Source: an uncultured Lentisphaeria bacterium (GTDB taxonomy: Bacteria; Verrucomicrobiota; Lentisphaeria; Victivallales; UBA1829). From it: a DNA stretch of 64,000 bases. Of this stretch, positions 20,461 through 49,233 are shown piece by piece. The notes beneath the pieces were generated by a model. That model did no database searches. It was not told the DNA's origin and saw only the letters and a program-made list of their open reading frames with translations. The stretch spans positions 16,374 through 80,373 of the forward strand of contig CAJKAR010000018.1 in NCBI GenBank assembly GCA_905197955.1, given 5' to 3'. The translations under genes and the position numbers were made by a program. Positions within the stretch are counted from its first letter, which is position 1. Every line of letters starts with the position of its first letter.

Positions 20461-21579
20461 GTGGTTTCTCAGAAAATCAAAACCAAAGGACGCGATCCGG
20501 TAAAACGGGAGGAAATCCTCTCTTATATCCGGGAGCGGGTTCATCGCGGCATCTGGAGACCTGGGGACAAACTGCCGCCGCGCACCTGGTTCGAACAGCA
20601 GTTCGACGCCGCGCCTTTAACCGTGCAGCGCACGTTCCAGATCCTGATCGACGACAAAGTCCTGTGCTCTGAAAAACGGATCGGCACACGGGTCAGTCTC
20701 CGGCAGCCGCATCTCTCCAGATACGGAGTCATCCTGTACGGTACGCGAAAACTGGAAAGCATGTTTTCTCAGGTTTTCATCAAGGCTCTTGAACAAGTGG
20801 CGGAGAAGGAGGAGATTGACATCGACTGTTTCTTTGTCCTCGGTCTCACCAAAGACGCCGAGGATTACCGCAGACTCCTCTATGGAATCGAAAACGGTCT
20901 TTTTGCCGGACTCTTTTTTGCAACCATTCCCAATTCTCTGGCAAACACGCCGGCCGTCTGCAACGATCTGCCGAAAATCGCGATCGGTCATCCATCCCGT
21001 GAGTTTCCGGAACTGCCGACGATCAATCTGGATACGGAAGGAGTCGTCACGGAAGTCCTCCGATATTTCTCCAAATGCGGATGCCGAAGAATCGCCGCCA
21101 TTCTTTCCGGAGAAAATTCGCATCTGGAAAACTGTGTTTCTTTTCAGAAAAAAGCGGCGGAATTCGGACTGGATGCTCCGGCGGGTTATGTTCTGGAGCT
21201 CAGTGCGGTTTCGCCGTTTCAGGTCAGACCGCTGACGCATCTGCTCTTCTCGCCGGACAACAGCCAGCCGCCGGAAGGACTCTATGTCGGCGACGATAAC
21301 TTTCTGCCGCATGTGATCGATATTCTCCGCGAACGCTTCGGCGACGATGCGGAACAGAAAGTCAAAATTGTTTCACAAGTCAACTTTCCGCGAATCTCTG
21401 AATATGACTTTCCCGTCAAATTCTTCGGTTTCGATCTCGCGGACCTGTTTCTCCGGTGCATCAAGACCATGCGGGAACTCCGGAAAAACGCGCAGCCGAC
21501 TCCCGCCTTGCTCTTCGAACCAATGGAAGACTCCGCTACTATGGATTCCCATACAACAAAGAAAGAAGGAACAAGATGA
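20461..21579 (+). CDS. AraR-like regulator (GntR HTH plus PBP1 sugar-binding domain), first gene of module 1
   Basis: GTG start with an AGGAAAAG SD. The HTH region is [41 protein letters not shown]. The C-terminal domain is PBP1-like. Confidence 0.8.
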
Positions 21580-22379
21580 AGAAGATTTTCACACTGATAG
21601 AGCTCCTCGTCGTAATCGCCATCATCGCCATCCTGGCGGCGCTTCTGCTTCCGGCGCTGCGGAAAGCCAGGGAAAAAGGAGAAGTCGCATCCTGTATGAG
21701 TAATCTGCGTCAGATGGGACAGGTCATACAGTCTTACGCCGGAGACAACAACGACTCCATGCCGATGTGTAAAAATGTGACCCAGCTCTGGTATCGTCCG
21801 AGTTTCGAAGGCTTTCTCTATCAGGAAGACGCCTCCGACAAATATCTGGCAACCTATGTCCCCGCCAGAAGCGACCTTCTTTACTGTCCCTCTCTGAAAG
21901 ACACTCTGAAAACTCAGACGAAAACCCAGTATATGGGATATATCATTCTGGGGATCTCCAGCTTCTATCCTCTCGACGGAACTGGCAACTCCACCGGAGA
22001 CGCCCATTATCTGACAGACTGGGCAAACTCCTACGGCAGATATTCTCTGAGCCGTCTTGCAACCAGTTCAATGCCCTATTCCAATGAAAACAATTCCGCC
22101 CCCAGGGCTTTTTCCAAACGGATTCTGGCTTCCGATCTGCTTTACCGCCCCAAAGACTCCGCCTATTTCGGACCCAATTTCGGACAAATTCCGGAACGAG
22201 GCGGCGCCCATTCCTGGCAGGGAGGCGGAAGCGTTTTTTCCGACGGCCATGTCGAATACCGGAACAATGGCCTGGGACGAGTCCCCGTCTCCTACGAGGA
22301 ATACAGCTACATGAGCGCAAACAAATCCTTCTATGCCGGACACTGGGCTCAACGCCCCTATGTTGCTCTGGCGAAGTAA
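21576..22379 (+). CDS. pseudopilin-like protein (prepilin-type N-terminal domain, degenerate H-X9-DG-type C-terminus), module 1
   Basis: [29 protein letters not shown]-terminus. C-terminus is [18 protein letters not shown] (H-X10-DG). The ATG at 21576 overlaps the regulator stop (ATGA). The 21456 ORF extension is rejected. Confidence 0.9.
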
Positions 22380-22399
22380 TCACGTAAGGAATATCACCG

Positions 22400-25300
22400 A
22401 TGAACAAACACCTTCTTCTCTTTTCCCTCTCCCTTTTGTGCGCAGGCGCTCTGCATGCGGAGGAACCGTTCCAGAACCTGTTTCTCCAATGGCTCCGCTC
22501 CGGAAAAATCAATACGGCCAAAAGCGGAGAATCTCCCGCCATGTTCCAGCCGCAGGACCGCGACGGAAGATGGCGCAACACCTTCTGCACCGGAGTTCCC
22601 ATTCCCTACTATGAAACCTGGCGGACAAAACCCGTTCCATCCGATGCGCCGCAAACGTTGACCGTTCAATTCAACGGCACCGTCAATCCGGGAACCATCC
22701 TCGCATTTGCCGCCGATACGACCGATACGCTCTTCACCATCGAAGGCTTTTCCGCTCCGCCTGCCGGCATCATCACGCTTCCCGTCGGCAGGGAGATCGG
22801 ATCCCTGACGCTCAAAAGCACAAAACTCGAACCCGTCCTCATCAACAACTGGGGCAGCAGGAAAGAGCTGACCACTCCGCTGAAAGCCTATCAGTTCTCC
22901 CTGCATGGACTCTATGCCATGGTGGAACAGCGGGTCAATATTGCTCCGTTTGCCCGTCCGCAGGTCTCCGGAATCTCCCTCCAGAAGCAGGCAGATGCTC
23001 CGAGAATTTCCGCAGCGGGACTCAACGACAACTCCACCTGGCATTTCTGGCGCAGCGAAAAACTTTCCTCCGGTCAGACCGCCCGTGCCGAACTGCTTTT
23101 TCCCTCTCCCGCAACCGTCCGGGAAACCGTTCTCTATTTCGCAGGGCGAGCTTACGACCTGATTCCTAAAGCCGTGAAAGTCTCGGCGGAAACGGAGAAC
23201 GGATCTCTGGAAATCGGAACCCTCGAAGGACTTAAAAAGGAACAGTTCAAAGGAAAATTCTTCTACCGGCTCCGCAATCCGCAGCCGGATGCCAAAATCA
23301 GAAAGCTGATTTTTGAGTTCACTCCGCAGAAAGATGTTGCCGCAGTCAGCGAGATTCTCGTTCTTGCCGCCCCCGGCGACAATCCCGGATTGAAACTCCA
23401 TGCCGACAAGCCCTATTCAAAAGAGTTTTCCATTCCCCGGAACGGCGGGACCTTCGCTTCGGCAGTCCTTGTCAGCCGGACCGGTGAACGGGTCCGCAAC
23501 CTTGCGCCGGGAAGAGCCGACGGGGATAAATTCATCTTCTCCTGGGACGGCCTCGATGAATCCGGTCTTGTCGTCCCGGAAGGCACCTATCAGCTGAAAG
23601 GCGCCACGCGCGGAAATCTCCGGGCAGAATACAACAGCACCCCCTACATGCCCAATCCGATTCCATGGGTCACGCCCGATCGAAAAGGCGGATGGCTCTC
23701 GGATCACGTTCCGGCAAGCACAATCGAATTCGCCGGAGGAGCTCTCTGGATCGGAGCGCCATTCGCGGAAAGCGGCGACACCATCATGCAGCTGACTCAG
23801 GAAGGGAAAAAACTCTGGGGAGTCCGCTGGCTGAACCTTTCAGGAGCCTGGACCATCCGGGAACAGGGCGGCAAAATCTATGTTGCCTCAGGCGGCGGAT
23901 GGCTCGGAAACAAACTGTTCGTCACGGAACTGGACCCCGCTGCCAAGGACTTCAAACAGCTCCTGAAAATCGAGGTCCCGAAAGAAATGGCTCAGAAAAA
24001 AGACTGGAAAAGCCGCTCCTTCAACGGATTCGCAGTCAATGAGAACACGCTTTACCTCTCCTACTCCAAACTCAACCGGATTGATGTGTATGGAAAAGAC
24101 GGGAAAAAGATCCGCACCATCGCCCTCCCCGCTCCCGGAGCCATGCGTTTCCATAACGGGGAACTGTATCTGATCTCCGGCAATAAGCTTCTCCAATACG
24201 ATCCGGCAGCCGGAACCAGGAAAGAGATCATCTCCAAAGGACTGGTCAAGCCGGGCGATTTCTCCTTCCACAACGGAAAAATCCTTGTCGCCGACACGGG
24301 AGCCAATCAGGTCAAACTCTTTTCCATGAAAGGAAAACTCCTGAAAACAATCGGCAAAGGGACTCCGCGCAAAGCCGGAAAGTTCGATCCGCTGGTTCTG
24401 GACTCCCCGATCGCGGTCGCGGCGGACTCCCGCGGGCAAATCTGGATCGCCGAATTCTCGACCCTTCCGAAACGCATCAGCGTCTGGAGTCAGGAAGGAA
24501 AGTTCCTGCGCGACTATCTCGGCCCCGCACGCTACGAGGCGGGAAGCTGGATGGATCCCGACGACATCAACACCTACTACGCCGAAGGCATGATCTTCAA
24601 ACGGATTCGCGGCGAATGGAAACTCGATTCCGTATATCTGGATACGACACCTGCGTTTGTCCGGGTGTTTCTGGAAAAGACCATGATCCCGGAACGTCCG
24701 CTGAAACTGAACGGGAACACGTTCCTGGCCAATGACCGTCACTGGTCGCAGCCGCTGATCTGGTACGGGGTTCTGGAACAGGATCACATTCTCAAACCGC
24801 ATATGGCTCTCGGCACCTACGAAAAAATCATCGGGCTCTTCCGGGAACGGCCCGAAAACTATTCCGGCAATCCGAAGGACTACACCTTCCTCTGGGTCAA
24901 CCGCAACAACGACGGCAACATGCAGTGGAATGAGATCCAGTTTCTGAAACGTCCGTTTGCCCGCCTCCAGTGGTGCGAACGGATGGGACGGGATCTCACG
25001 CTCTACTGGCAGAGCGGAAACGAAATCAAAAAACTCCAGAGGAAACCCGGAAGCGGACTGCCGGACTACGATCTTGCCAAAGCCGAAACACTCCGGACCC
25101 TCGCCCCCGGCGAATACCTCTACGCGATGGCGCCGCTGACCGACGGTCAGCTTCTCCTGAACATGAAGCCCCTGACCTGTATTTCCCAGACGACCGGCCG
25201 TACCCTCTGGACCTATCGCAATGCCTATCCTTCGAACTCGCATGACAGTCCCCTGCCCGCGCCGGGTGAAATTCAGCACACCCTCAACGCGGAAGGAGAA

Positions 25301-26353
25301 GTTTCCGTTCCCAACTTCGGCAAAGTCTTCCTGCTGAACGGCAACAAGGGACTCCGCTATCTCTTCAGCGGCGACGGCATCTTCCTCGGCACCCTCTTCG
25401 CCGATCAGAGACTTGCCGAACCGCTCTCCATCTCCAACGTTCAGGAGGGAATGGATCTTTCGCACTACTCCCTGATGGATGAAGCCTTCTGCGGAACCTT
25501 CGAGCGCGGAGCCGATGGAAAAGTCTACTTCTCCGGCGGCAAGAACCACCATTCGATCTATGAGATCAAAGGACTGGATTCCCTGAAACGTTTCTCGCAG
25601 GACATCCGCTTCTCCTCCGAAGAGCGGAAACAGGCGGAGGAATCGCGCATCCGCGAGATTCAGAAGAAAAAAGCCGCTCTTATTGAAACGCCCTCCGTCC
25701 TGCCCCGCATTCAGGGCAATGACTGGAAAAAGGTTCCGGAACAGAAGGTGTTCAGCAATGGAAAAGTCTTCTACACCTATCGTCTGGCTTACGACAACAC
25801 CCATCTCCGCGGACAATTCCAAGTCTACGATCCGACCCCCTTCCTCAACAACGGAGGCGACTGGAAAATGCTCTTCAAAACAGGCGACTCCATCAATCTG
25901 GAATTTGCTTCGGCAAACGGGAAAGCGCCCTCAATCGGCGATATCCGTCTGCTGATCGCCCCGCTCCGCGGCCAGGCGGTCGCCGTTGCCTACCGCTACA
26001 AACTGGAAGGGGATCACAGCAAAACTGCCTCGGAATTCTCCTCGCCCATCGGGAAAACAGTCGTGGACAAGGTGGAAATTCTCAAGAACGCGAAAATTCA
26101 TGTGAAGCGCGGCGGGAACTACTACCAGGTCGATCTCTCCATTCCGCTGGCGGACCTTCCGCCGCTGGCAAAAGAGACGTTCTATTATGACGCGGGGGTC
26201 ATCTTCTCCGACGCAAGCGGAAGCCGGAACAGTTTCAATCTGTTCCATCACAGCCCCCTGAAAGGCATCACGGCCGATGTCCCAAGCGAAATACGGCTCA
26301 CGCCGAATTATATGAAAAAAATCACGAAACTCATGAAAGGCTCCACAAAATGA
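22400..26353 (+). CDS. 1317-aa secreted multidomain protein (beta-sandwich/discoidin-like x2, FlgD-Ig-like, NHL-like beta-propeller, CBM9/DOMON-like C-terminus); paralog of 27908..31816
   Basis: Signal peptide MNKHLLLFSLSLLCAGALHAEE. FlgD-Ig-like FIFSWDGLDESGLVVPEGTYQLKG. NHL-like blades (ILVADTGANQVKLFSMKGKLLKTIG; IAVAADSRGQIWIAEF). C-terminal blocks align by eye with the paralog. Confidence 0.85.
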   Translation: MNKHLLLFSLSLLCAGALHAEEPFQNLFLQWLRSGKINTAKSGESPAMFQPQDRDGRWRNTFCTGVPIPYYETWRTKPVPSDAPQTLTVQFNGTVNPGTILAFAADTTDTLFTIEGFSAPPAGIITLPVGREIGSLTLKSTKLEPVLINNWGSRKELTTPLKAYQFSLHGLYAMVEQRVNIAPFARPQVSGISLQKQADAPRISAAGLNDNSTWHFWRSEKLSSGQTARAELLFPSPATVRETVLYFAGRAYDLIPKAVKVSAETENGSLEIGTLEGLKKEQFKGKFFYRLRNPQPDAKIRKLIFEFTPQKDVAAVSEILVLAAPGDNPGLKLHADKPYSKEFSIPRNGGTFASAVLVSRTGERVRNLAPGRADGDKFIFSWDGLDESGLVVPEGTYQLKGATRGNLRAEYNSTPYMPNPIPWVTPDRKGGWLSDHVPASTIEFAGGALWIGAPFAESGDTIMQLTQEGKKLWGVRWLNLSGAWTIREQGGKIYVASGGGWLGNKLFVTELDPAAKDFKQLLKIEVPKEMAQKKDWKSRSFNGFAVNENTLYLSYSKLNRIDVYGKDGKKIRTIALPAPGAMRFHNGELYLISGNKLLQYDPAAGTRKEIISKGLVKPGDFSFHNGKILVADTGANQVKLFSMKGKLLKTIGKGTPRKAGKFDPLVLDSPIAVAADSRGQIWIAEFSTLPKRISVWSQEGKFLRDYLGPARYEAGSWMDPDDINTYYAEGMIFKRIRGEWKLDSVYLDTTPAFVRVFLEKTMIPERPLKLNGNTFLANDRHWSQPLIWYGVLEQDHILKPHMALGTYEKIIGLFRERPENYSGNPKDYTFLWVNRNNDGNMQWNEIQFLKRPFARLQWCERMGRDLTLYWQSGNEIKKLQRKPGSGLPDYDLAKAETLRTLAPGEYLYAMAPLTDGQLLLNMKPLTCISQTTGRTLWTYRNAYPSNSHDSPLPAPGEIQHTLNAEGEVSVPNFGKVFLLNGNKGLRYLFSGDGIFLGTLFADQRLAEPLSISNVQEGMDLSHYSLMDEAFCGTFERGADGKVYFSGGKNHHSIYEIKGLDSLKRFSQDIRFSSEERKQAEESRIREIQKKKAALIETPSVLPRIQGNDWKKVPEQKVFSNGKVFYTYRLAYDNTHLRGQFQVYDPTPFLNNGGDWKMLFKTGDSINLEFASANGKAPSIGDIRLLIAPLRGQAVAVAYRYKLEGDHSKTASEFSSPIGKTVVDKVEILKNAKIHVKRGGNYYQVDLSIPLADLPPLAKETFYYDAGVIFSDASGSRNSFNLFHHSPLKGITADVPSEIRLTPNYMKKITKLMKGSTK

Positions 26354-27897
26354 AATTCTTTCTCTCAGCAATCACCGCGGCGGCGCTTCTGCTTCCGGCA
26401 AGTTCGTTCGCGGAACGGATTCTTGTCGTCGGAGACAGCATCACGGGACACTCCATGAACTTGAAGTTCGGGTATACGCATCAGGTACGCAAAGCGCTCA
26501 AGGAGTGCGGAGTCGGCGATGTTGAATTCATTCCGCTCGGCGGAAGCGGTCAGTCGGTCACCTCCTGGCGAAACGTGATCCGGGACTCCCGGGCGAAAAA
26601 CCAGAAGCTCGACATCCCCGGAATCTTCGTCAGAGAGGAGTTTGACAAGGGTGCCGATACCGTCATCATCTTTCTCGGCATGAACGACGCCCTTGCTCCG
26701 TACACCGATTTTTCCTCTCTCCAGCGCTGGAAAGAGGACTACCGGAAACTCGTCAGCGATCTGAAAGCCAGACTCAAATTCAAAAAACTCATCCTTGCCT
26801 CTCCCACCATGCTGACCGAAACGCCATTTTCCTACAAAAACACCCTGATGGATGAAATGGCAAAAATCATCCGCGATCTGGCGAAGGAACTCGGTGCCGA
26901 ATATCTCGATACCCGCGAAAGTTTTCAGCAATATCATGAAGCCATGCGGAAGCAGAATCCGAAACAGAACTTCATGCTGGATTACGTGCATCCGAACGAA
27001 CGGGGCCACAACAGTCTGACGCACTCCTTTCTGAAGGCGATCGGCCGGAAAAATGTCTCCGATCACTACCTTCAGAAAACCATGCCCGCTGCCATGAAAG
27101 TTGCGCAGAAGCCCGGCATGAGCCTTTATGTGCAGAACAGTCGTGTTCCGGGGGAATTCACAATCCGCGGCTCCCTCGCCGGGGGCGATTTCAAGGATCT
27201 CAAAGCTCAGCTTCCGGAAGGACTGACCCTCAAAAAGATCGACGGTTCGGCAAACGATTTCACGCTCACGGTAACCGGAGAACCCCGACAGCTGAAAAAC
27301 ACGGTCACGGTCACCGCCGGCTCCGTGAAACAGACCCTCGCGCTGAACGCGCCCTTCCTGATCTCCACCGGCTACGACAGCGGACGCTGGTTCAAGCCGG
27401 CCGACTTCCAGAAAGAGAAAGCGGAAACGCAGATCGACCGCGATGCAAAAGCCGGAAAGGATGTCACACAAAGCATCGTCAATGGAAAGAAAACGGAATG
27501 GCTGGTCTACTACCCGACCGCCGATGTCACCGGAGGGGACGACCCGAATGCAGTGGATTTTGCCTCCGTCACCAACGGCAAACCGTTTGAATCGGGATAT
27601 CTTCTGCGCTATATCCATTCCCCGGAAGCAAGGAAAGTCAATCTGAGTGTCGGATCGAAAACTTTCGCAGGCCAGGAACAGGTCACGGTCTACCTCAACG
27701 GGAAAGAGGTGTACAGCGATGTCATCACCTCGAAAAAAGGAAAACGCGATTCCGTTCCGGTGGAACTGAAAAAAGGCTGGAACACGCTGATTGCACGGGT
27801 CAGTCACGTCACCTGGCAGTGGGCGGCAAGCGTAGGACTCAAGAATGCAGACGGATCGGATGTCCCGGACCTCACCAGCTCCATCACAGGCAAATAA
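26350..27897 (+). CDS. secreted SGNH/GDSL hydrolase (carbohydrate esterase-like) with a C-terminal beta-sandwich region
   Basis: Signal peptide present. Block I is ILVVGDSITG, block III is IFLGMNDA, block V is DYVHPNERGH. ATGA overlap with the upstream gene. Confidence 0.85.
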   Translation: MKFFLSAITAAALLLPASSFAERILVVGDSITGHSMNLKFGYTHQVRKALKECGVGDVEFIPLGGSGQSVTSWRNVIRDSRAKNQKLDIPGIFVREEFDKGADTVIIFLGMNDALAPYTDFSSLQRWKEDYRKLVSDLKARLKFKKLILASPTMLTETPFSYKNTLMDEMAKIIRDLAKELGAEYLDTRESFQQYHEAMRKQNPKQNFMLDYVHPNERGHNSLTHSFLKAIGRKNVSDHYLQKTMPAAMKVAQKPGMSLYVQNSRVPGEFTIRGSLAGGDFKDLKAQLPEGLTLKKIDGSANDFTLTVTGEPRQLKNTVTVTAGSVKQTLALNAPFLISTGYDSGRWFKPADFQKEKAETQIDRDAKAGKDVTQSIVNGKKTEWLVYYPTADVTGGDDPNAVDFASVTNGKPFESGYLLRYIHSPEARKVNLSVGSKTFAGQEQVTVYLNGKEVYSDVITSKKGKRDSVPVELKKGWNTLIARVSHVTWQWAASVGLKNADGSDVPDLTSSITGK

Positions 27898-27907
27898 GGA
27901 GCGGAAG

Positions 27908-30900
27908 ATGAAATTTTCAAAATATCTGACGGCACTTTTCACAGGAGCCTCCTTCATTCTGCCTCTCGGAGCTCTGGATATTATGGATGGGGTCATGTAC
28001 GCCGTCCCGGCGCCTGCGAAGATCAGGATCGACGGCAAACTCAACGACTGGGATCACTCCGGAAAAGAGTGGCTCGCCCTCTCCCGCGAAGTTGCCGACC
28101 GCTTCTCCGGCGATGTCATGGTCATGTACGATGACAACGCCCTCTATCTTGCCGCCGATATCCTCACCGGCGGCGGTCCCATGAAAAACACCAACAAACC
28201 AGGAGAAAAACCGTGGATCGGCCATAATCTGGAGTTCCGCTGCATCGCGACACCGAAAGCGCCGCATCCCCTGCGCATTGCGAAAAACGACATCTCCGAT
28301 CCGAGCGTGAAGGACTACGCTCCCTATATCAAAACCATGGCGATCTGGATGGAAACCGTCACCCGTACCCCCCATATCACCTTCCAGGACGGCCCCCCGT
28401 ATCAGGGCAAAATGATCCACGATCCGGAAGGAGTGCAGCTTGCATTCGGAGAGACAAAAAATCCCGACCGCTATCAGATGGAAGCCCGCATTCCCTGGAA
28501 ACTCCTCGGCGTGGAATCCGGCAAAAATCCATTCAAGCCCGGCGAAGCCATGACGGCATTCTGGACCGTTCTCTGGCCGCAGAGCATCACCCAGCGCGCG
28601 GAGGCGCTCCGCATCGCGCCGACCACCGGATTCGGATGGGCATGGCACGGAGTCAATAAATGGGGCAGAATCGTCTTTGCTCCCGACAACAAGCTCAAAC
28701 GGCGCAATCCGGATCTGAAGACCTATCTGGCGCAGAGTGCGGAGGTGCCTGACTGCGACAGTTTCACCGTCAATATGCCGAAAGATGGAATGCTCTCGGT
28801 CAGCATCATCGGAAAAGACGGTTCCGTTCTTCGGGAAATCGCCGGAGGGGAACGTCATAAAAAAGGTCCCGTCACCCTCTACTGGGACGGCTTCGACTGG
28901 CGCGGCAACAAAATGCCTGTCGGCGAATACACCTGGAAAGCCTATGTTCATGATCCGCTGAAAGTCACGTTCACCGGAGCCGCCGGCACCTCCGCCAAGG
29001 TCCCGTATGAAACACAGGACGGCAGAGGAAACTGGGGCGGAAACATGGGACCCGCCACCGCCGTCGCCAGCGACGAACAGGGACTGTATTACCTCTGGGG
29101 CAGCAATGAAGGCGGACAATCCATCGTCAAAACCGATTTCGACAACAACGTCCTCTGGCGCACCACTCCGTATGTGATCGACGGCGGCTACGGTCCCCAT
29201 ACCGCCATCGGAGCCAACCGGAAATACGTCTATGTTCTTTCCGGCTGGTTCAACACCTTCCTCACCCGCTACGATGCGAAAAACGGACTCACGGCGCCGT
29301 TCGGCGATCAGCGTTTTCTCACGCTTGATTCCTACGGGAAAACCCCTCCCCAGCAGCTCGACTGGAATACGCCGATGCCTTCCGCCAACTCCATTGTCGT
29401 CACGGAAAAGGAAGTCTTCGTCCCCCTCCACTACAAAGGACAAATCCATGTCTACGACGCCGAAACCGGCGCCCTGAAACGCACCCTTCCCTGCGAATGG
29501 GCGCGCGGAGCCGCTCTCGACCGCAACGGCGACCTCTATGTTCTCACCATGCGCGACACCAACGGCTGGCACAACCGGGGCGCGGAACTGCATCGCTTTG
29601 CCAAGGCGCAAGGGAAATCCCGCATGGTCATGCGTCTGCCCGGACAGATCCAGAATCCCTGGAGCATCACAGCCCATGACGGAAAATTCTATATTTCCGA
29701 CAACGGATATTCCAATCAGATCTGGATTGTCTCGAACGGCAGGATCGCCGGAAGGCTCGGTACGGAAGGCGGTCGCCCGTGGTACGGTAAATACGATCCG
29801 AAAGGACTGCTTCATCCCGCAGGACTCCACATCGACCGGTTCGGCAAGCTGCATGTCGCGCAGGCCGCCATTCCGAGCGTCTTCCAGAAATACGATGCAA
29901 AGACTCTTGCGCTGGAGGGAGAGCTCTTCGGAGAGGTCGGGTACTGTCCGCCGAGCTGGCCGGACTGCGATGATCCGCTTCTTGTGTACGTCAAGGACTA
30001 CTTCTCCAACGGTCTGATCCGCAGCCGTCTCAAAGGCGACGGCACCTCCTCCGGAACCGAAGCCTACTGGCGCTTCTCCAAAATGGACTGGCCCTATTCA
30101 CTGCAATCCTGGCTCTCCAATTACAAGGTTCCGCGAGTCTTCCGGGGACCGGGCAATCTCAAGTACATGTTTGCCGCAGGACTGAATGCGAATCCCGCCG
30201 TGCTCGTGCGCATGGAAGGCGATACGCTCAAACCGGTCAACAGCTTCGGCACCGACGGCATCCGGAACGGACTCAAAGTCTGGAGCGACCGCAACGGAAA
30301 CGGAAAAATCGATCCGGAAGAAATCCGCATCGTCACAAAACTTGCCGGACAGACACTCGATGCAAAATGGCAGGCTCATGCAAGCAAAGTCGATGACCGC
30401 GGCAACATCTATCTCACGGCAAGCGACAACAAAGTCTACTTCATTCCCTTCCGCTCGCAGGGGAAAAACGGCTGCATGGAGTGGGATTTCGACCGATCCA
30501 GGATTCTCGTCCGGGAAATCATTCCGGGAGCCAGAACGCCGCTGTTCTACACCGCGCGCGAGCAGATCACCGGAATCGACGAGGACAGCAAGGGAAATCT
30601 CTATCTTTCGTTCAACACGAACCTCAAGTACGCCTCGCCCGAATGGACAAGCAAACTGAAGTTCGGACTCGGTCACAGCGGACGCTTCAATGCGGTCAAG
30701 ATCGTCTCGTTCGATCCGCAGGGCAGACAGCGTTTCCTGGTTGGCCGGAAAGCCACCGGAGTCCTGCGCGACGGCGAAATGTATCATCACTGGACCCAGG
30801 CGGGAATGCTCGGCGATCACTATGTGGCAGTCGGCTCCGAATGGACCCCCTTCACGCTCTATACCTCCGACGGTTTCTTCGTCCAGTCGCTTCTGGCGGA

Positions 30901-31816
30901 CCCGAACCGCGGCGAAACACCGAGTCCGTTCAGTCTCGGCGGCGGAGAGACCTTCGCCGGTCAGCTCCGTTATTTCCCCGAACGCTCCGAAGCCTATCTC
31001 TATACCGGCAACACGCACGGAATGGTCTATCGGATCGAAGGGCTCAACAAGGACGGGACAATCAAAGGGGAAAAACGCTTCTCCGGAACAATGAAACTGA
31101 CACGTCATCTTGACCCGTTCGCGGAAAAAACGGAAACGGCAAAGGCGGTCTTTGAACCGCTCAGCGATCCGCTCCGGACGGGTGAATGGAAAAGTTCCGT
31201 CGTACTCAACGACAACAGCGGACGCCGTCTGGCAGACGTCAGTTTCGGATACGACAGCTCCATGCTTTATGCCCGCTTCCTCGTCCGGAATCCGAAGCCG
31301 TTCGTCAATCGTGCGGATGATCCGGCAATGGCATTCAAGATGGGCGATTCCGTCGGATTCTATCTCGGAAAGCCCGGCAGAAAAGCTCCGACCGATACGG
31401 TCCGGATTCTTGCCACCATTCTGAAAGGCAAACCCGTCGTCATCGGTTTCTTCCCGAAGTCCGGAGCTTTGAAGCAGCCGTATGAGTACTTCACAACAGC
31501 GGGCGGGCGCGTCAGGTATGAGTTCGCCGGAGTCATTCCGGATGCGCGCGCGGTCTTCCGGCCGAACAACGGAGGATATACGGTCGAAATCGCCGTTCCC
31601 CGCAGAGCTCTGCCGGATTATGAATTCAAAAAAGGCGGTAAGATCGCTCTGGAAGCCGAAGTGCTTCTCTCCGGAAACGGAATACGCGGACTTCAGACCC
31701 TCTCCCGCAACCACCTCTTCACGCCGCGTTCCGCCGGACAGGCAAAGATGGTGGATGATATTCCGAGCGAAGCCAGAATCTATCCGCAGTACATGAAAAA
31801 CGCGGAAATCAGATAA
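27908..31816 (+). CDS. 1302-aa secreted multidomain protein (N-terminal CBM9-like, FlgD-Ig-like, NHL-like beta-propeller, CBM9/DOMON-like C-terminus); paralog of 22400..26353
   Basis: The ATG at 27908 gives signal peptide MKFSKYLTALFTGASFILPLGA. The 27845 extension is rejected. CBM9-like IRIDGKLNDWDHSG. FlgD-Ig-like VTLYWDGFDWRGNKMPVGEYTWKAYV. NHL-like blades are present. The C-terminus ...DDIPSEARIYPQYMKN parallels ...ADVPSEIRLTPNYMKK in the paralog. Confidence 0.85.
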   Translation: MKFSKYLTALFTGASFILPLGALDIMDGVMYAVPAPAKIRIDGKLNDWDHSGKEWLALSREVADRFSGDVMVMYDDNALYLAADILTGGGPMKNTNKPGEKPWIGHNLEFRCIATPKAPHPLRIAKNDISDPSVKDYAPYIKTMAIWMETVTRTPHITFQDGPPYQGKMIHDPEGVQLAFGETKNPDRYQMEARIPWKLLGVESGKNPFKPGEAMTAFWTVLWPQSITQRAEALRIAPTTGFGWAWHGVNKWGRIVFAPDNKLKRRNPDLKTYLAQSAEVPDCDSFTVNMPKDGMLSVSIIGKDGSVLREIAGGERHKKGPVTLYWDGFDWRGNKMPVGEYTWKAYVHDPLKVTFTGAAGTSAKVPYETQDGRGNWGGNMGPATAVASDEQGLYYLWGSNEGGQSIVKTDFDNNVLWRTTPYVIDGGYGPHTAIGANRKYVYVLSGWFNTFLTRYDAKNGLTAPFGDQRFLTLDSYGKTPPQQLDWNTPMPSANSIVVTEKEVFVPLHYKGQIHVYDAETGALKRTLPCEWARGAALDRNGDLYVLTMRDTNGWHNRGAELHRFAKAQGKSRMVMRLPGQIQNPWSITAHDGKFYISDNGYSNQIWIVSNGRIAGRLGTEGGRPWYGKYDPKGLLHPAGLHIDRFGKLHVAQAAIPSVFQKYDAKTLALEGELFGEVGYCPPSWPDCDDPLLVYVKDYFSNGLIRSRLKGDGTSSGTEAYWRFSKMDWPYSLQSWLSNYKVPRVFRGPGNLKYMFAAGLNANPAVLVRMEGDTLKPVNSFGTDGIRNGLKVWSDRNGNGKIDPEEIRIVTKLAGQTLDAKWQAHASKVDDRGNIYLTASDNKVYFIPFRSQGKNGCMEWDFDRSRILVREIIPGARTPLFYTAREQITGIDEDSKGNLYLSFNTNLKYASPEWTSKLKFGLGHSGRFNAVKIVSFDPQGRQRFLVGRKATGVLRDGEMYHHWTQAGMLGDHYVAVGSEWTPFTLYTSDGFFVQSLLADPNRGETPSPFSLGGGETFAGQLRYFPERSEAYLYTGNTHGMVYRIEGLNKDGTIKGEKRFSGTMKLTRHLDPFAEKTETAKAVFEPLSDPLRTGEWKSSVVLNDNSGRRLADVSFGYDSSMLYARFLVRNPKPFVNRADDPAMAFKMGDSVGFYLGKPGRKAPTDTVRILATILKGKPVVIGFFPKSGALKQPYEYFTTAGGRVRYEFAGVIPDARAVFRPNNGGYTVEIAVPRRALPDYEFKKGGKIALEAEVLLSGNGIRGLQTLSRNHLFTPRSAGQAKMVDDIPSEARIYPQYMKNAEIR

Positions 31817-31842
31817 ACGGCACGATCGGACAATCTGAAACG

Positions 31843-33666: not shown

Positions 33667-33713
33667 AGAGCCGTTTGCTTCCCCACTCCGGAAACAAACG
33701 GCTCTTTTCTTTC
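33667..33713 (+). terminator. rho-independent terminator
   Basis: AGAGCCGTTTG (33667-33677) pairs with CAAACGGCTCT (33695-33705), followed by TTTCTTTC. Confidence 0.8.
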
Positions 33714-33781: not shown

Positions 33782-33810
33782 TTGACAGGGACATGTTTAA
33801 GATGTATTAT
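33782..33810 (+). promoter_or_regulatory. consensus-like sigma70 promoter of module 2 (GH5-regulator-pseudopilin)
   Basis: TTGACA (33782-33787), a 17-nt spacer, then TATTAT (33805-33810). Confidence 0.65.
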
Positions 33811-35519: not shown

Positions 35520-36584
35520 ATGGCTCAAATCATGCCGGAATACATGCGGGTGCGACAGTACCTCTACAATCTCATCAGCAACTGCGACGGGGAATCCATG
35601 CAGATCCCGCCGGAAAATGAACTCTGCCGAATTTTCGGAGTCAGCCGCGTCACCGTCCGCGGAGCCATCCGCGAACTGATCCGGGAAAATCTTCTGGTCA
35701 CCCGGCGCGGTCTCGGAACCTTCATCCATCCGGACGCCGTCCCCAAACAGCACATCCGTCTGCCGGTCATCGGGATTCTCTCCGGCGACGGCCGCCAGAC
35801 CTATCAGTCCTCCGATCCCACCGTCATGCAGGCGATCCGCCGCTGCGCCATGCTCTCCGAATCCCTTTATCTTCCGGATTCCAAAACCCCGGAACGACTG
35901 CTGGAAATCATCCGCAACAACATCGCCGGCGTGATCTGGACCGAACCTTCCCCAAAACTGATACCCTATCTTCAGGCGATCCGCAACAGCGGAAAACCTC
36001 TGCTCCTCATAAGCAACAGATTCGACCGGGATTTCGATTCCGTCCGGGATGCCCCCGCCGAACGCGGCATGCTTCTGGCAAATCACTTCGTTTCACTGGG
36101 ACACCGCCATGTTCTCTATCTGCACAACTATCCGGCGGAAGGCGGATTCGATCGGCCAGAACAGCCGGAGACAACTTCGGGATCTCTCATGCGTCATCTG
36201 CATGAGCTCACGGGAAACGGATCCGTCGGCTTTCTCTCCCTGCTCGAATTCGAACAGTTCCTTGCGGAACACGGCATCGGCAAATATACGGTTCTCTATT
36301 CCGATGCAAATCTGGTCCGCCCGGTGATGAAGCTCCTGAACGATGCGGAGATCCGGGTCCCGGAGGATATCTCCTATCTCACCGCCTGGCAACCCTCCCC
36401 CAGATTCTTCCACGGAGAAACGCCCGCATGGCTCGACTGCGATTCCGATAAAATCGAATGCATTGTCGAATGGCTCCAGCGGAAAATCATCGACGGCGAA
36501 CAGGCACCCTTCCTCGCCACAGCCTCCACCACGCTCCACAACGGAAATACCCTGCGTCCCAATAAAAAGAAAGGAAACGCATGA
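35520..36584 (+). CDS. AraR-like regulator (GntR HTH plus PBP1 sugar-binding domain), module 2
   Basis: [19 protein letters not shown]...[41 protein letters not shown]. Starts 1 nt after the GH5 stop. The 35451 ORF extension is rejected. Confidence 0.85.
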
Positions 36585-37351
36585 TGAAACGAATCTTCAC
36601 TATGATAGAACTTCTTATTGTCATCGCAATCATTGCCATTCTGATTTCGATTCTTCTTCCAGCACTCCGGAAAGCAAGAAACAATGCCCATGAACTGGCC
36701 TGCAAATCGAATCTGAAAACAATCGGATCGGCATCGGCGATGTACAGTTCCGACTATGACGACTGGATCGTCTACATCAACGACCGCTCCTGGTCCGCCA
36801 GCTGGAAGGCAACAGATTTCTGGACGGGAAAACTCAGCATGTACGGAGCAAAACACGGGAAAAATGCAACGGAATGCCTGAATCCAGCCCGTCCCTCCGT
36901 CTTCCGCTGTCCCGCCTATCCGGACTGGAGAAGTCAGGAAGATGCGTCGAATGCCGGTTATTATCTCTCCACCTCCTCCCACTACGCGGCAAACGTCTTT
37001 CTCTGCGGCAAAACGCCGACTGCGGCCATTCAGAATTACGCCCACAGGAATATTGATCTCCGGGCACCGACCCGTGTCATTTTCGCCGGAGACTCCCTGC
37101 TCACAATCGACAGTCTCCAGGGAACCTATTCCTTCTATTACCGGCACGGCAGCGGCGATCCCCGTCCGAAAACCAGCGCAACGGTCAATAACGACTACAC
37201 TTCCATGATCGCCGGACGCGCCAACACTCTCTATGCGGATGGTCATATCGCATCCCGTTCGTTTCAGCCGGATCAGAACCGCTGGCATCCGCTGGCCAAC
37301 GAGGGATTCTACGGCGACACCTATACGGCCCGGGGCTCCCGGATCCAGTAA
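36581..37351 (+). CDS. pseudopilin-like protein (prepilin-type N-terminus), module 2
   Basis: [30 protein letters not shown]-terminus is ...[16 protein letters not shown] (DGH retained, upstream His displaced). ATGA overlap with the regulator stop (36581-36584). Confidence 0.9.
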
Positions 37352-37396: not shown

Positions 37397-38347
37397 TCAC
37401 ACGGCAAAAAGACGTTTCAGATTCCGGAACAGAAGTTCAGACCCGGAATCATTCGGATGAATGCCATCCACATAATATGCAGGATCGTCCGGCAGAAGAG
37501 TCCGTCCGTCGATGAAGCGCACCTCCGGGAATTCCGAAGCCAAGTTGCAAAGCGCTTCGCAATAGTCATCCAGATGCAGCCCCAGATCATTCGGTTCGGT
37601 CCGTCCCGCCCACGGAATCGGACCGAGCAGGAAGACTTCCGCCTCCTTCCGGGAAAGAAGCGGAAGAAGCGCCCCCTTCATATCCTCCAGATACGCCCCC
37701 AGTGGACGCGACGTATTGAAATCGTTGACCCCGAATCCGAGAACCGCGCGATCCCATTCATATTCCAGCGCACAGGAACCGAGCCGTTGATCCGCGGTCG
37801 CTCCGGCGACACTCAAATTGCAGTATTCGCTCTCCAGCAGGCGCGCAAGCCGGTCCGCATACGCCAGCGACGGACGCGACACCGTCATTCCCTGCATAAT
37901 GGAATCCCCGATGAACAGCATTGCATGATCCTTCCGGGGAACGTTCTCCACCCGCGCGCCCTCGTCCACTTCAAGCGCCCCGACAAAACATTCCACCAGA
38001 TGCGGAAGCTCCATTTCCACTTCATGCATTTTCCCGTCAAGGACAATTTCAAGCACCTCTTTCTCAAAGGAATACGCCGTTTCCATCCCATCGACCCATA
38101 CGCTGAAGGCAAAGACCGGCCGCGCAATTCTGCCGAACACAACAGGAAGCCTCAGTTTTGCAGAATCCGTTTTCAGCAGGATCCGGATCCCGGAAGGGCA
38201 GAGCGCACGGATCTCCCGATGCTCCGTACAGCGATAGATCGACAGAAGAGAAGATGTCAAACGATGAAGTTGAAGACCGCGCTCCTTTACTTCCCACGAA
38301 ACACATCCGCGAAGCAGTCCGCCATTTACCCGTAAATCAAGCAGCAT
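37397..38347 (-). CDS. cytoplasmic SGNH hydrolase with an N-terminal beta-sandwich (CE2-like acetyl esterase architecture)
   Basis: Block I is LFIGDSIMQG, block III is GFGVNDF, block V is DGIHPNDSG. The ~140-aa N-terminal domain precedes the SGNH fold, as in CE2 enzymes. No signal peptide. Confidence 0.75.
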   Translation of the reverse strand: MLLDLRVNGGLLRGCVSWEVKERGLQLHRLTSSLLSIYRCTEHREIRALCPSGIRILLKTDSAKLRLPVVFGRIARPVFAFSVWVDGMETAYSFEKEVLEIVLDGKMHEVEMELPHLVECFVGALEVDEGARVENVPRKDHAMLFIGDSIMQGMTVSRPSLAYADRLARLLESEYCNLSVAGATADQRLGSCALEYEWDRAVLGFGVNDFNTSRPLGAYLEDMKGALLPLLSRKEAEVFLLGPIPWAGRTEPNDLGLHLDDYCEALCNLASEFPEVRFIDGRTLLPDDPAYYVDGIHPNDSGSELLFRNLKRLFAV

Positions 38348-38427
38348 AATAAACCTCTCTGGTGAAACAGAAACTCAAAACAAGAACAAAATAATATACA
38401 TTTCTCCCGGAAAAAGTAAAATCCGGA

Positions 38428-38456
38428 TTGAAAAATCACCATCCCTTCATTATGGT
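38428..38456 (+). promoter_or_regulatory. putative promoter of the CE4-GH95 unit
   Basis: TTGAAA (38428-38433), a 17-nt spacer, then TATGGT (38451-38456). A 10-bp perfect palindrome GAATCGATTC (38470-38479) lies between the -10 and the SD. Confidence 0.35.
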
Positions 38457-38501
38457 ATGAACATGATCCGAATCGATTCATTTTTATGAAAGGAGAATCC
38501 C

Positions 38502-40541: not shown

Positions 40542-40587
40542 TTCAACAATATACCGATCCAAACAAAAAAAAAGGATTTTTTGATTC

Positions 40588-42921: not shown

Positions 42922-42945
42922 TCCGGATTTTTCCGAAACATTCCT

Positions 42946-42991
42946 CCCCTTCCCCGAGAGCATATCGACTCCGGTGAAGGGGTGTTTTTTT
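42946..42991 (+). terminator. rho-independent terminator after GH95
   Basis: CCCCTTC (42946-42952) pairs with GAAGGGG (42976-42982), with a long loop, followed by TGTTTTTTT. Confidence 0.6.
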
Positions 42992-43018
42992 CAACGTATC
43001 TATTTCCGGGAAACGGCT

Positions 43019-43894: not shown

Positions 43895-43931
43895 AGTGTC
43901 GATTTTCTATATAAAATGCGTTTTTTTCATC

Positions 43932-43960
43932 TTCATGACAGACGTTTTTCGGAATATAAT
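43932..43960 (+). promoter_or_regulatory. putative activator-dependent promoter of 44011..45594
   Basis: A perfect TATAAT (43955-43960) sits 17 nt after a weak -35 TTCATG (43932-43937). Divergent from the AraC gene. Confidence 0.35.
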
Positions 43961-44010
43961 ATCCCGGAAGAGAAATCGCAACCTGAAAAACGAAAAACAA
44001 GGAGATTTTC

Positions 44011-45594: not shown

Positions 45595-45636
45595 TCCTCC
45601 GGCCGGGAAGCGCCATTTTCCCGACTCCCGGCAAAG

Positions 45637-45665
45637 CCTTCCTTCGATTCCGGAGGAAGGTTTTT
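45637..45665 (+). terminator. rho-independent terminator
   Basis: 10-bp stem CCTTCCTTCG (45637-45646) pairs with CGGAGGAAGG (45651-45660) with one G-U pair, tetraloop attc, followed by TTTTT. Confidence 0.85.
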
Positions 45666-45761
45666 CCGGAAATCACACTCTTTTCCCGAAGCAGGATTTG
45701 ACAAATCCGGAACGAAAGCCCATTATTCATTATTACGCAGGAGATGGATCGCCTATGCTAC

Positions 45762-45810
45762 TGGCGGCTCCTGTCTGACGGCTCCTGCCTGGCGGCTCCG
45801 ATCTGCCGGC
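45762..45810. repeat. imperfect 14-bp tandem repeat x3.5 (TGGCGGCTCCTGTC / TGACGGCTCCTGCC / TGGCGGCTCCGATC / TGCCGGC)
   Basis: Read directly. Lies 38 nt upstream of the ATG at 45848, between the terminator and the beta-helix gene. Confidence 0.85.
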
Positions 45811-45847
45811 ACAACGAAAATGAGATGAAAGGAAAGGAAAAGAAATC

Positions 45848-47260: not shown

Positions 47261-47388
47261 ATAGACTTATCGCCTCCCGTCCCTGCATGACTCTTCCGAA
47301 TCCGCTGAAGCGTATCATTCCAAGCGACTGGGTTTGATACTGCCGGAATGGAAACTGCTTTTTTCTCTGTTTTTTTCTGGACACCCTC

Positions 47389-47417
47389 TTGACATCTTCC
47401 GCGAAATGTAGTATAAT
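47389..47417 (+). promoter_or_regulatory. consensus sigma70 promoter of module 3
   Basis: TTGACA (47389-47394), a 17-nt spacer, then TATAAT (47412-47417). It shares the 14-mer CCCTCTTGACATCT with the module-1 promoter. Confidence 0.7.
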
Positions 47418-47424
47418 TATATCA

Positions 47425-47440
47425 TCTGAAACGTTTCAGA
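47425..47440. promoter_or_regulatory. LacI-family operator (perfect 16-bp palindrome TCTGAAACGTTTCAGA)
   Basis: Perfect inverted repeat with a central CG and a TGAAACGTTTCA core, which fits the cre/LacI-GalR operator consensus TGWAANCGNTNWCA. Starts 8 nt after the -10 and 37 nt before the LacI-family gene. Confidence 0.75.
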
Positions 47441-47476
47441 AAAAAAAAAGAAAACAATCAAAAAGAGCGGAAAAGA

Positions 47477-48505
47477 ATGGTTTCGATCAAGGACATTGCC
47501 AGACATACGGGATACGGAGTATCGACCGTTTCGGCAGTGCTGAGCAACAAAGCGGGCAGTCTGGGAATCAAACAGGCGACCTGTGATAAAATTACCGCAG
47601 CCGCCGCCGAACTTGGTTATCGACGCAACAACATCGCTGCGCAGATGCAGTCCGGCCGCTCCAGAATGCTGGTGCAGTTTCTCCCCGATTTTCATGGAGA
47701 TTACCTCTCCCGAAGCGCACTGATGGCGAATATCGCCGCGCTCAAACTCGGCTACACAACCAGGGAGATCGTTTTCAGCCGGAACAGCGATTTCCGGAAA
47801 CTGGTGGATAATGCCATCGAACAGCGACCTGCCGCATTTTTCGCCTGGAACATTCAAGGGCCCAGACTGGAAATCCTTCTGCATGATTCCCGCAGATACA
47901 AGATTCCTCTTGCTCTGCTGGACATTGATGTCGAAGAAGCGGATCTCTGCGTGATCACGGATGACCTTTCCGGAATCCGTCAGGCAGTCGATCACCTTTA
48001 TGAACTGGGGCATCGCCGCATCGTGCACGCGACAGATACTTTTAAGGCACAATATGCGAAAAACCGTTTCAACGCCTATGCACAGTGTCTGAAGGAAAAA
48101 GGTCTCGTTCTGGACAAATCGCTCTGCTACCACGACTACATGACATCCAATCCGGAAAAGCTGATCGAATATGTGAAAATGCTGACATCTCTGCGGGAAC
48201 CGCCAACCGCCGTCACCTGCGGATCCGACTATATGGCATTCAAGCTGATGATGCTTTTTCCGCGTTTTGGATTCCGGGTTCCGGAGGATATCTCTCTGAT
48301 CGGATTCGGCGGACTGCCGCTTGCCGAAGTCGCGGTTCCAATGCTGACGACAATCGACCAGTCGCTGGATCGGCTCGGTGCAAATGCCGTCGAGACCATG
48401 ATCCGGCTTCTGAACCGAAAATCCGTTCCCGCACGCATCCTCCAGCCCACCACCTTGAACATTGCTCAAACAACAACTATACCAAAGACAGGAGTGCAAG
48501 TATGA
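47477..48505 (+). CDS. LacI family transcriptional regulator, module 3
   Basis: N-terminal [28 protein letters not shown] followed by a PBP1 effector domain. Confidence 0.9.
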
Positions 48506-49233
48506 CAGCTGAATACCCGGTCCATCTCAGAAAAGAAAGGATGATTTTCACACTCATTGAACTGCTTGTTGTAATTGCAATTATAGCAATTCTGGCAGCA
48601 ATTCTGCTGCCGGCCTTGAATTCCGCAAAGCTGAAAGCCCGTCAGATCGAATGTGTGAACCATCTCCGCATGTTCGGTCAGGCAGGCAATACCTATGCCG
48701 CCGATTACAACGATTTCTGGTTTCCCAGAGATGCAAAAGTTCCGGACAAAACAAATCCGACCACCTTCATCAACAATCTGACCATCCGGGCGAAATATCT
48801 GAATATCGACATCCGGAAATACAGTGTCGAAGGCTGGATTCCCCGTAACCTCCTCTGTCCCGTTTCCTCCGCCATGCAGAAAAATTATTCCTACGGCAGC
48901 TATTTTTCCAACTCCTACGGCATCACTTACAATGGCACGGAAAATGAGAATCCAGCTGGCTCCGGGTTCCGGGGATTCAAACTGACTCAGATCAAACGTC
49001 ATTCGGCCGCCATGGCAATGGCGGATGCGCAGGACTACCTGATCTGGCAGACCAATTATTATGAGTATATCAAGAAACGGGAAAACGTTTCTCTCAATTC
49101 CGGAAACGGAATGCTGGCATACCGGCATTTCGAGGGATTCAACGGAGTTTTCTTCGATGCGCATGTGGAAAATCTCCGTTACGGAGCATTTGTGGAACGG
49201 AAAAGTGCTCTGATGTATCCTCTGAATCCATAA
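48502..49233 (+). CDS. pseudopilin-like protein (prepilin-type N-terminus, H-X9-DA C-terminus), module 3
   Basis: [40 protein letters not shown]-terminus is [19 protein letters not shown]. The ATG at 48502 has an AGGAG SD 7 nt upstream and overlaps the LacI stop (ATGA). The 48085 ORF extension is rejected. Confidence 0.85.

Follow-up and report, generated by a model that had tools for sequence, protein, structure and literature searches.

Why should genes for pilin-like proteins begin on the stop codons of sugar-type repressor genes? The question is raised by a stretch of 64,000 nucleotides from an uncultured Lentisphaeria bacterium of the order Victivallales (contig CAJKAR010000018.1; the whole stretch is called the window), which holds exactly three pilin-like genes with an FTLIELL motif, each of them starting on the stop codon of such a repressor. 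The regulator-then-pilin arrangement is non-random and old, and it is seen with both DNA-binding families involved, LacI and GntR. It represents a new arrangement of known parts, which is real, has robust statistical support and is conserved at the level of an order; from it we infer a function below.

Repressor–pilin junctions in the window

All three junctions proposed in the initial annotation were confirmed by direct reading of the sequence. Regulator 1 (20461–21579, plus strand, 372 residues) ends with TGA at 21577–21579, and pilin-like gene 1 (21576–22379, plus strand, 267 residues, leader MKKI) starts with ATG at 21576–21578, giving an ATGA overlap at 21576–21579. The same overlap is found at 36581–36584 between regulator 2 (35520–36584, plus strand) and pilin-like gene 2 (36581–37351, plus strand, 256 residues), with ATG at 36581–36583 and TGA at 36582–36584, and at 48502–48505 between regulator 3 (47477–48505, plus strand, 342 residues) and pilin-like gene 3 (48502–49233, plus strand, 243 residues), with ATG at 48502–48504 and TGA at 48503–48505. 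A purine-rich Shine–Dalgarno-like element is present 3–7 nt upstream of each pilin start codon. All three elements were located inside the 3' end of the regulator gene, as had been claimed: GAAGGAA at 21565–21571, 4 nt 5' of the ATG, AAAGGAAA at 36570–36577, and AGGAG at 48490–48494 with a spacing of 7 nt.

Some of the starts have alternatives. For regulator 2 the most likely start is 35520, 1 nt past the stop codon of an upstream gene of glycoside hydrolase (GH) family 5; the database gene call is the ATG at 35532. A second ATG at 36584 would reduce the overlap at junction 2 to 1 nt. Initiation of pilin 3 at an internal ATG (48541) would yield a protein of 230 residues with the short leader MI ahead of FTLIELL; here an AAAGG lies directly against the ATG, with zero spacer. 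The start at 48502 is favoured because of the spacing of the AGGAG element, because the public gene calls give the long form, and because the orthologue in the related locus L090 (86% identical) lacks the internal methionine and has only the long-leader start, 1 nt past the LacI stop codon.

The two DNA-binding families assigned earlier, GntR-type and AraR-like for regulators 1 and 2 and LacI for regulator 3, were confirmed by Pfam and NCBIfam. The GntR helix-turn-helix (HTH) model PF00392 scored 33.9 bits in regulator 1 and 46.9 bits in regulator 2 (cut-off 27), and the best PDB match of regulator 2 is the DNA-binding domain of Bacillus subtilis AraR (4egy, E 1.6e-7). Regulator 3 lies above all cut-offs, with PF00356 at 41.9 (27), PF13377 at 108.8 (26.5) and PF00532 at 44.6 (22.2), which makes it a LacI-family repressor with a LacI HTH and a Peripla_BP_1/Peripla_BP_3 domain. 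The sugar-binding domain of the PBP1 type that had been ascribed to all three is therefore clear in regulator 3, weak in regulator 2 and weaker still in regulator 1. In regulator 2, Peripla_BP_3 reaches 16.7, under the cut-off of 26.5, with weak PDB matches to ribose and Cra regulators and to the AraR effector domain (E 0.04–0.22). The C-terminal half of regulator 1 has no Pfam match, and its residues 179–354 weakly match the LacI effector domain of PDB entry 9nt3 (E 0.002); together with the GntR-type winged HTH this gives an AraR-like protein. A related regulator in L090 combines GntR with Peripla_BP_3 in the precomputed Pfam table.

A fourth AraR-like regulator (19170–20201, minus strand), divergent from regulator 1, has no pilin-like gene downstream and constitutes an internal counter-example. 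It is followed by a gene for a 271-residue membrane protein without the pilin motif (18257–19072, minus strand), an arrangement that is kept in loci L001 and L088.

Enrichment and conservation of the pair in Lentisphaerota

Within the window, the chance of such adjacencies was assessed by a six-frame search of the 64 kb for FTLIELL-type motifs and by permutation of the gene labels. All three motifs follow a regulator, while 0.18 adjacencies are expected (p = 3e-4). Contigs from metagenomes of the gut and other sources carry the window genes. For a wider sample, an alignment of the pilins was scanned against one genome per GTDB species, which yielded 80 loci, 44 from Lentisphaerota and 36 from Verrucomicrobia and other groups; the sample took in no Planctomycetes. 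In these loci open reading frames (ORFs) were called, pilin-like genes were recognized by their N-terminal motif, and LacI and GntR regulators with a periplasmic-binding-protein (PBP) domain were detected with an iterated profile that had been seeded with the four regulators of the window.

The 44 Lentisphaerota/Victivallales loci contain 25 regulator-then-pilin adjacencies, compared with 4.6 ± 1.9 expected and a maximum of 12 in 10,000 permutations. A regulator ends less than 250 nt upstream of 22 of the 61 evaluable pilin-like genes (18/41 of the pilin genes used for fetching the loci and 4/20 of the other pilin genes there); as such regulators make up ~7% of the genes, the binomial p value is 1.7e-10. 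Among the 18 regulators that are not adjacent to a fetched pilin gene, 5 are directly followed by a pilin gene and 6 more have one on the same strand within 3.5 kb downstream. None of the 44 pilin-like genes in the 36 loci from Verrucomicrobia and other groups has a sugar regulator upstream. Hence, the enrichment is real and, in this sample, confined to Lentisphaerota. The expectation that related genomes would show the adjacency more often than chance was thus borne out in this phylum, while the description of the co-expression as an obligate 1:1 relation did not hold, with only 22/61 pilins and 5/18 regulators paired and a window regulator that lacks a pilin.

Thirty full pairs were collected from many species, about 20 with a GntR-type and about 10 with a LacI-type HTH, and their regulators are mutually only 20–25% identical. 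The gene behind the pilin almost always encodes a large protein with a Sec signal (~250–1500 residues), located 10–30 nt downstream and belonging to families as different as GH5, GH42-like, GH71, GH123, GH39/CBM9, sulfatase, ConA-like and beta-helix proteins. The usual order of a unit is therefore promoter/operator, repressor, pilin-like gene and large Sec-exported carbohydrate-active enzyme (CAZyme). In homologues of regulator 3 with 83, 51, 43 and 43% identity the order LacI–pilin–GH5 is kept with spacers of +1, +4, -4 and -4, respectively. The order GntR–pilin–1317-residue protein of the first pair is kept in L087 and L088, and orthologues of regulator 1 retain the 4-nt overlap with pilins that are down to 49% identical. 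In L090, which is syntenic with the window and comes from a related species (GCA_949292215.1), an extra cassette of a GntR+PBP regulator, a pilin with an ATGcTGA overlap and a GH71 enzyme (L090:3277-7340) is inserted between genes that are adjacent in the window (corresponding to 45595–45847), and L087 has an additional GntR–pilin–GH42 unit. These extra cassettes indicate that regulator, pilin and enzyme behave as an insertable unit that can be gained or lost. Pairs are also carried by the cultured Victivallis vadensis DSM 14823 (L016 and L058).

In the window's clade, comprising the window and L087–L094, 8 of 11 regulator–pilin junctions show the ATGA overlap. Elsewhere in Victivallales the two genes are separated by 3 to ~200 nt. 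The conserved feature is adjacency, and translational coupling is lineage-specific; the identical junction emphasized in the initial annotation is thus typical of this clade and not general. A Mantel comparison of regulators and pilin heads gave a weak signal (r = 0.17, p = 0.03), which demonstrates no joint duplication of the two genes beyond orthologues; between non-orthologous pairs the heads are almost unalignable, and they do not partition by regulator type.

One explanation for the adjacency requires no pair-specific function at all. Both gene types are common in the glycan operons of Victivallales, repressors tend to head operons, and the order might simply have been inherited by operon copying. 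The weak co-phylogeny outside orthologues, the wide variation of spacers beyond the window's clade and the fact that only about one third of the pilin-like genes have a regulator upstream, the others following enzymes or other pilins or standing alone in their loci, would all be expected from such a history. Local abundance, however, is kept for both gene types by the within-locus permutation of labels, and the excess is still 5-fold. Moreover, the same pairing is met again with unrelated DNA-binding domains of two kinds and with regulators that share only 20–25% identity, the regulator-then-pilin order is kept even where the enzyme precedes the pair (unit B, described below), and the overlap is retained in orthologues whose heads have diverged to 42% identity. 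We therefore regard inherited order alone as an improbable explanation.

Pilin-like proteins with divergent heads

The N-terminus of the three proteins belongs to the pilin class. Each has F at +1 and E at +5, followed by ~20 hydrophobic residues, P at about +22 and the sequence (L/I)LLPAL, and in alignments of 60 and 98 relatives F1, T2, E5 and P22 are invariant or nearly so. All three pass the cut-off of TIGR02532 (21.6, 18.9 and 22.7; cut-off 16.3), with a match that begins at model position 4 and skips the Gly position, and stay under that of the N_methyl family PF07963 (19.7, 16.2 and 20.7; cut-off 21.2). Scores for the GspG equivalog TIGR01710 are 32.3, 29.4 and 31.5 compared with a cut-off of 88.85, covering positions 3–59 of 134 and thus only the N-terminal helix; the GspH, ComGC and PilA models likewise score far under their cut-offs. 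A PDB profile search with 60 relatives also matched the N-terminal helix only, in Thermus thermophilus PilA, geopilin, PilE and GspG.

No NCBIfam match to TIGR04294 (H-X9-DG) was obtained at E ≤ 0.01 for the window pilins, and the DUF1559 model PF07596 (cut-off 23.3) scored 20.3 for pilin 2 and 17.6 for pilin 3, over profile positions 2–45 of 268 only, with no match for pilin 1. Many database relatives at ~33% identity carry PF07596, and relatives of the window proteins carry PF07963 as well, which makes the window pilins divergent relatives of DUF1559 rather than clear members. The C-terminal motif is approximate: by eye, pilin 1 has H-X10-DG, pilin 2 ends with ...ANTLYADGH and lacks the upstream His, and pilin 3 has H-X9-DA, while R-H...N...D-G-H is near-invariant among relatives. 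Invariant cysteines are found at positions 40 and 104 (pilin 1 numbering), which fits an extracytoplasmic head.

For pilin 3, AlphaFold2 (AF2) gave a model with a pLDDT of 83.6 and a pTM of 0.82, in which a 50-residue alpha1 helix is combined with a four-stranded sheet and a helix at the C-terminus. In a Foldseek search against the PDB it matched gonococcal pilin over the helix (probability 0.99). The search returned no solved structural relative of the head, so that a lectin-like or GspG-like head is neither supported nor excluded, and no match to a periplasmic-binding-protein fold, leaving the label 'solute-binding' without support. Pilin 1 was modelled poorly (AF2, pLDDT 58.6), and Foldseek returned only noise for the model.

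Overall, the window pilins are ~33% identical to one another. Within their conserved segment the codons differ at 12/19, 17/23 and 13/20 identical residues. In agreement with the initial annotation, the three genes are thus old paralogs; recent duplication or gene conversion was considered and is ruled out, as synonymous sites are saturated.

Compared with the regulators and enzymes encoded beside them, the pilin heads diverge far more rapidly, as exposed pilin heads do. This emerged from comparison of the window heads (21681–22379 and 48652–49233) with L088 and L092–L094. In L088 the regulator is 80% and the enzyme 86% identical, compared with 42% for the pilin head, and in L094, where regulator and GH5 enzyme are still 43% and 42% identical, the head is undetectable by BLASTP.

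A different organization was seen on the minus strand of L015 (Verrucomicrobia), where three tandem short pilin-like genes with the motifs FTMIELV, FTLIEVA and FTVMEVM (strand-relative 7049–8672) resemble a minor-pseudopilin set, in contrast to the solitary Victivallales genes.

Operon context and proposed role

The pairs are embedded in operons with glycan-active proteins that carry Sec signals, a claim of the initial annotation that the gene content bears out. Unit A consists of a promoter, regulator 1, pilin 1, a 1317-residue protein, an SGNH esterase, a 1302-residue protein and perhaps a 554-residue protein. Its sigma-70-type promoter (20399–20427, plus strand), located ~35 nt 5' of regulator 1, matches the consensus TTGACA-17-TATAAT at 12/12 positions and has a TG extension. 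The gene of the 1317-residue Sec-signal protein (22400–26353, plus strand) starts 20 nt past pilin 1 and is overlapped by 4 nt by the start of the SGNH/GDSL esterase gene (26350–27897, plus strand, 515 residues), behind which lies the gene of the 1302-residue Sec-signal protein (27908–31816, plus strand). The two large proteins are without a recognizable catalytic domain. Both show no more than a weak FlgD_ig match, located at about the same place in the two, and they might be paralogs that form an undescribed family of glycan-active proteins. Between the gene of the 554-residue protein and the next promoter-like site, a hairpin (33667–33705) with a 16-nt stem of 94% complementarity, AGAGCCGTTTGCTTCC ... 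GGAAACAAACGGCTCT, is probably the terminator of unit A.

In unit B the enzyme precedes the pair. A promoter-like site (33782–33810, plus strand, 11/12) is followed by a GH5 cellulase-family enzyme with a signal peptide (33872–35518, plus strand, 548 residues), which is the first gene of the unit, and by regulator 2 and pilin 2. The neighbour of pilin 2 in the database gene call is a convergent SGNH/GDSL esterase (37397–38347, minus strand), so that pilin 2 closes the unit with no enzyme gene behind it. A plus-strand ORF of 292 residues at 37457–38335 was rejected as spurious, since it has no family matches and the esterase is called on the opposite strand.

Unit D comprises a promoter, a putative operator, regulator 3, pilin 3 and a GH5 enzyme. 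The promoter (47389–47417, plus strand) again matches TTGACA-17-TATAAT at 12/12 positions. Just past its -10 hexamer lies a perfect 16-bp palindrome, TCTGAAACGTTTCAGA (47425–47440), which is shaped like an operator of the LacI family; it occurs nowhere else in the window, and its core TGAAACGTTTCA is kept at L090:8925-8936. The GH5 cellulase-family enzyme, with a signal peptide (49243–51477, plus strand, 744 residues), starts 9 nt past pilin 3. The consensus promoters together with the LacI-type palindrome suggest that the pairs sit in autoregulated operons.

From these observations we infer that each pair is part of a self-contained, sugar-induced operon, in which the pilin-like protein would be the envelope component of its locus, working with the enzymes or the glycan on a shared platform of the type-IV-filament class and not as a partner of the regulator; we estimate the probability of this reading at roughly 55%. 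A strong promoter and operator would drive a cytoplasmic sugar-binding repressor of the LacI or AraR-like type. Directly behind the repressor gene comes the pilin-like gene and, in the usual case, at least one gene for a large glycan-active enzyme exported by Sec. If the repressors behave like known LacI and AraR proteins, entry of the cognate sugar into the cell would release the repressor from the operator, and regulator, pilin-like protein and enzymes would be made together. The near-invariant N-terminal helix with F1, E5 and P22 would tie the pilin to a shared type-IV-filament or type II secretion system (T2SS) class machine or membrane platform, and the fast-evolving head, exposed to the periplasm or surface, would serve the locus-specific function, most likely capture or uptake of the glycan or export or retention of the enzymes. 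The occurrence of one pilin per regulated unit and the regulator-then-pilin order in unit B slightly favour a role per locus, such as glycan capture or uptake, over a role per enzyme. The locus-specific envelope partner put forward in the initial annotation is thus retained as the best reading. The overlap of stop and start codons would reflect operon compaction and may set the ratio of pilin to first cistron in this lineage; it gives no evidence of contact between the proteins.

Contact between the two proteins is the basis of the second role suggested initially, in which the pilin, acting as an anti-regulator, would hold the regulator at the membrane, by tethering or sequestering it, and thereby control it. 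Such a tether is suggested only by the co-expression and by the close overlap of start and stop codons. The cytoplasmic part of the pilin would be limited to the leader of 3–15 residues, which is not conserved even between orthologues (one reads MKPIPVQNEMWRQN); a leader this short and variable makes a regulator tether unlikely. In addition, similar pilins are paired with two DNA-binding folds and with very divergent effector domains, many regulators occur without a pilin and many pilins without a regulator, and LacI and AraR repressors are known as soluble dimers or tetramers controlled by their ligands. A membrane tether thus appears highly improbable.

Several observations weigh against an envelope component that works on a filament-class platform. 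The pair is frequent and not obligatory, as about two in three pilin-like genes lack a neighbouring regulator. Overlaps of 4 nt also join two enzyme genes of the unit A operon (26350–26353) and two unrelated genes (7019–7022), although they are otherwise rare among the remaining same-strand junctions. A glycine at position -1 is required by canonical prepilin peptidases (Strom and Lory 1991), and this residue is Ile in all three window pilins (sites 21573–21590, 36590–36598 and 48541–48549). Among the 80 loci (L007–L086), those from Lentisphaerota have G in only 3/70 and A in 4/70 cases, the other residues including R, K, S, I, N, T, P, D and E, in contrast to G or A in 49/50 cases in the Verrucomicrobia and other loci; among database relatives of pilin 3, G or A is found in 26/118. 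The absence of Gly(-1) makes both processing and filament assembly uncertain. Furthermore, the gene annotations of the window and of the tabulated related loci showed no gene of a filament machine or peptidase, though the loci were not searched systematically. Finally, the heads outpace the enzymes in divergence, which makes it less likely that a conserved glycan or enzyme is recognized tightly and specifically and calls for caution with models that need precise recognition.

It would seem that the phylum as a whole has lost the canonical site of the prepilin peptidase while F1, E5 and P22 stayed invariant. Possibly, the proteins are matured by an enzyme of different specificity, or they remain uncleaved and anchored in the membrane. 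That F1, E5 and P22 are so strongly conserved speaks for continued engagement of a filament-type machinery, and the missing glycine points in the opposite direction.

If the proteins remain uncleaved, they could be periplasmic proteins anchored in the inner membrane by a short basic leader and one transmembrane helix that never enter a filament and act as locus-specific chaperones or secretion adaptors for the neighbouring exported enzymes. The highly variable position -1, which even includes Pro, Asp and Glu in place of Gly, would be explained by such a role, and so would the finding that in most pairs the gene of a large Sec-signal enzyme comes right after the pilin gene, as well as the existence of minimal cassettes of regulator, pilin and a single enzyme. 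A precedent is available from Acinetobacter, in which the adjacent membrane-bound chaperones LipB and CpaB are described as serving individual T2SS substrates (PMC4713064). A plain anchor, on the other hand, would not need near-invariant F1, E5 and P22 across thousands of paralogs in two phyla. For a dedicated chaperone it would also be odd that the head in L088 is only 42% identical while the enzyme is 86% identical, pilin 2 of the window has no downstream enzyme gene, and the pilins count one per regulated unit and not one per enzyme. Taken together, a chaperone or adaptor role is possible but unlikely.

Significance and comparison with known systems

Pilin-like proteins of the DUF1559/H-X9-DG type form one of the largest paralog families of the Planctomycetes–Verrucomicrobia–Chlamydiae (PVC) bacteria and are without an assigned function; in one order they are now tied to glycan use. 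Their wiring to LacI/AraR-type repressors and exported CAZymes, above chance, provides a predicted inducing condition for each copy and, since Victivallis vadensis DSM 14823 is in culture, opens the family to experiment. The regulator-then-pilin pair could also mark glycan-utilization loci in Lentisphaerota, where no marker of the SusC/SusD type exists. How, or whether, these pilins mature is a separate question that follows from their loss of the canonical peptidase site. No prior description of a regulator–pilin association was found in the literature searched, the coverage of which was incomplete.

Regulators 1 and 2 resemble AraR of Bacillus subtilis, a repressor of sugar operons with a GntR winged HTH and a LacI/GalR-type effector domain, with regulator 2 giving the better match (4egy) and regulator 1 a similar but weaker one. 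AraR, however, is not followed by a pilin-like gene, and the effector domains of these two window proteins are very divergent, with Peripla_BP_3 below its cut-off.

With the DUF1559/H-X9-DG families of Planctomycetes and Verrucomicrobia (PF07596, TIGR04294) the window pilins share the N-terminal helix, a length of 220–290 residues, an approximate C-terminal ...H...N...DGH and an expansion to hundreds to thousands of paralogs. In the literature these proteins are described as of unknown function or as 'solute-binding', and 68 copies are reported for Planctopirus limnophila and 74 for Rhodopirellula baltica (PMC2754498, PMC10632474). The window copies differ in falling under the DUF1559 cut-off and in not matching TIGR04294, and the Lentisphaerota copies have lost Gly/Ala(-1). 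The position behind a sugar regulator is a further difference, absent from the sampled Verrucomicrobia and other loci (0/44).

T2SS pseudopilins (GspG-K) and type IV pilins likewise have an N-terminus resembling a class III signal, with F1, E5 and P22, and a long alpha1 helix on a small beta-sheet. In contrast to these, the window pilins score far under the GspG, GspH, ComGC and PilA cut-offs, lack Gly(-1) and have a head without a solved relative, and their genes occur singly, scattered in catabolic operons and not in a machine operon.

Subunits of type-IV filaments that bind carbohydrate are known from Streptococcus sanguinis, where glycan binding by the minor pilins PilA and PilC has been reported (PMC9934059). 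These are encoded in the pilus operon and not beside sugar repressors. Surface fibres that bind carbohydrate also occur in PVC bacteria: gold-labelled dextran was found on pili-like fibres of P. limnophila and Gemmata obscuriglobus (PMC5394234). For Kiritimatiella, an apparent lack of TonB-dependent uptake has been described (PMC5148204). The dextran-binding fibres and the apparent lack of TonB-dependent uptake together make a pilus-based acquisition of glycans conceivable. More specifically, and only as a tentative extension of the proposed envelope role, the pilins may be specificity subunits for glycan capture or uptake, one per locus, on a single shared retractile machine of the type-IV-filament or T2SS-like kind, each switched by its own repressor. 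Such a system would be a pilus-based counterpart of SusC/SusD and would be accompanied by a non-canonical maturation independent of Gly(-1). It would explain how polysaccharide degraders among the PVC bacteria acquire glycans without TonB-dependent uptake, and why the pilin paralogs have expanded.

The closest parallel in organization, and in organization only, is provided by the polysaccharide utilization loci of Bacteroidota, in which a sensor-regulator and the envelope component SusC/SusD of each locus are co-regulated with exported glycan-degrading enzymes. In the Victivallales loci the corresponding component is pilin-like and not a TonB-dependent transporter or lipoprotein, and the regulator is a cytoplasmic LacI- or AraR-type repressor instead of a hybrid two-component system or an extracytoplasmic function (ECF)/anti-sigma factor pair.

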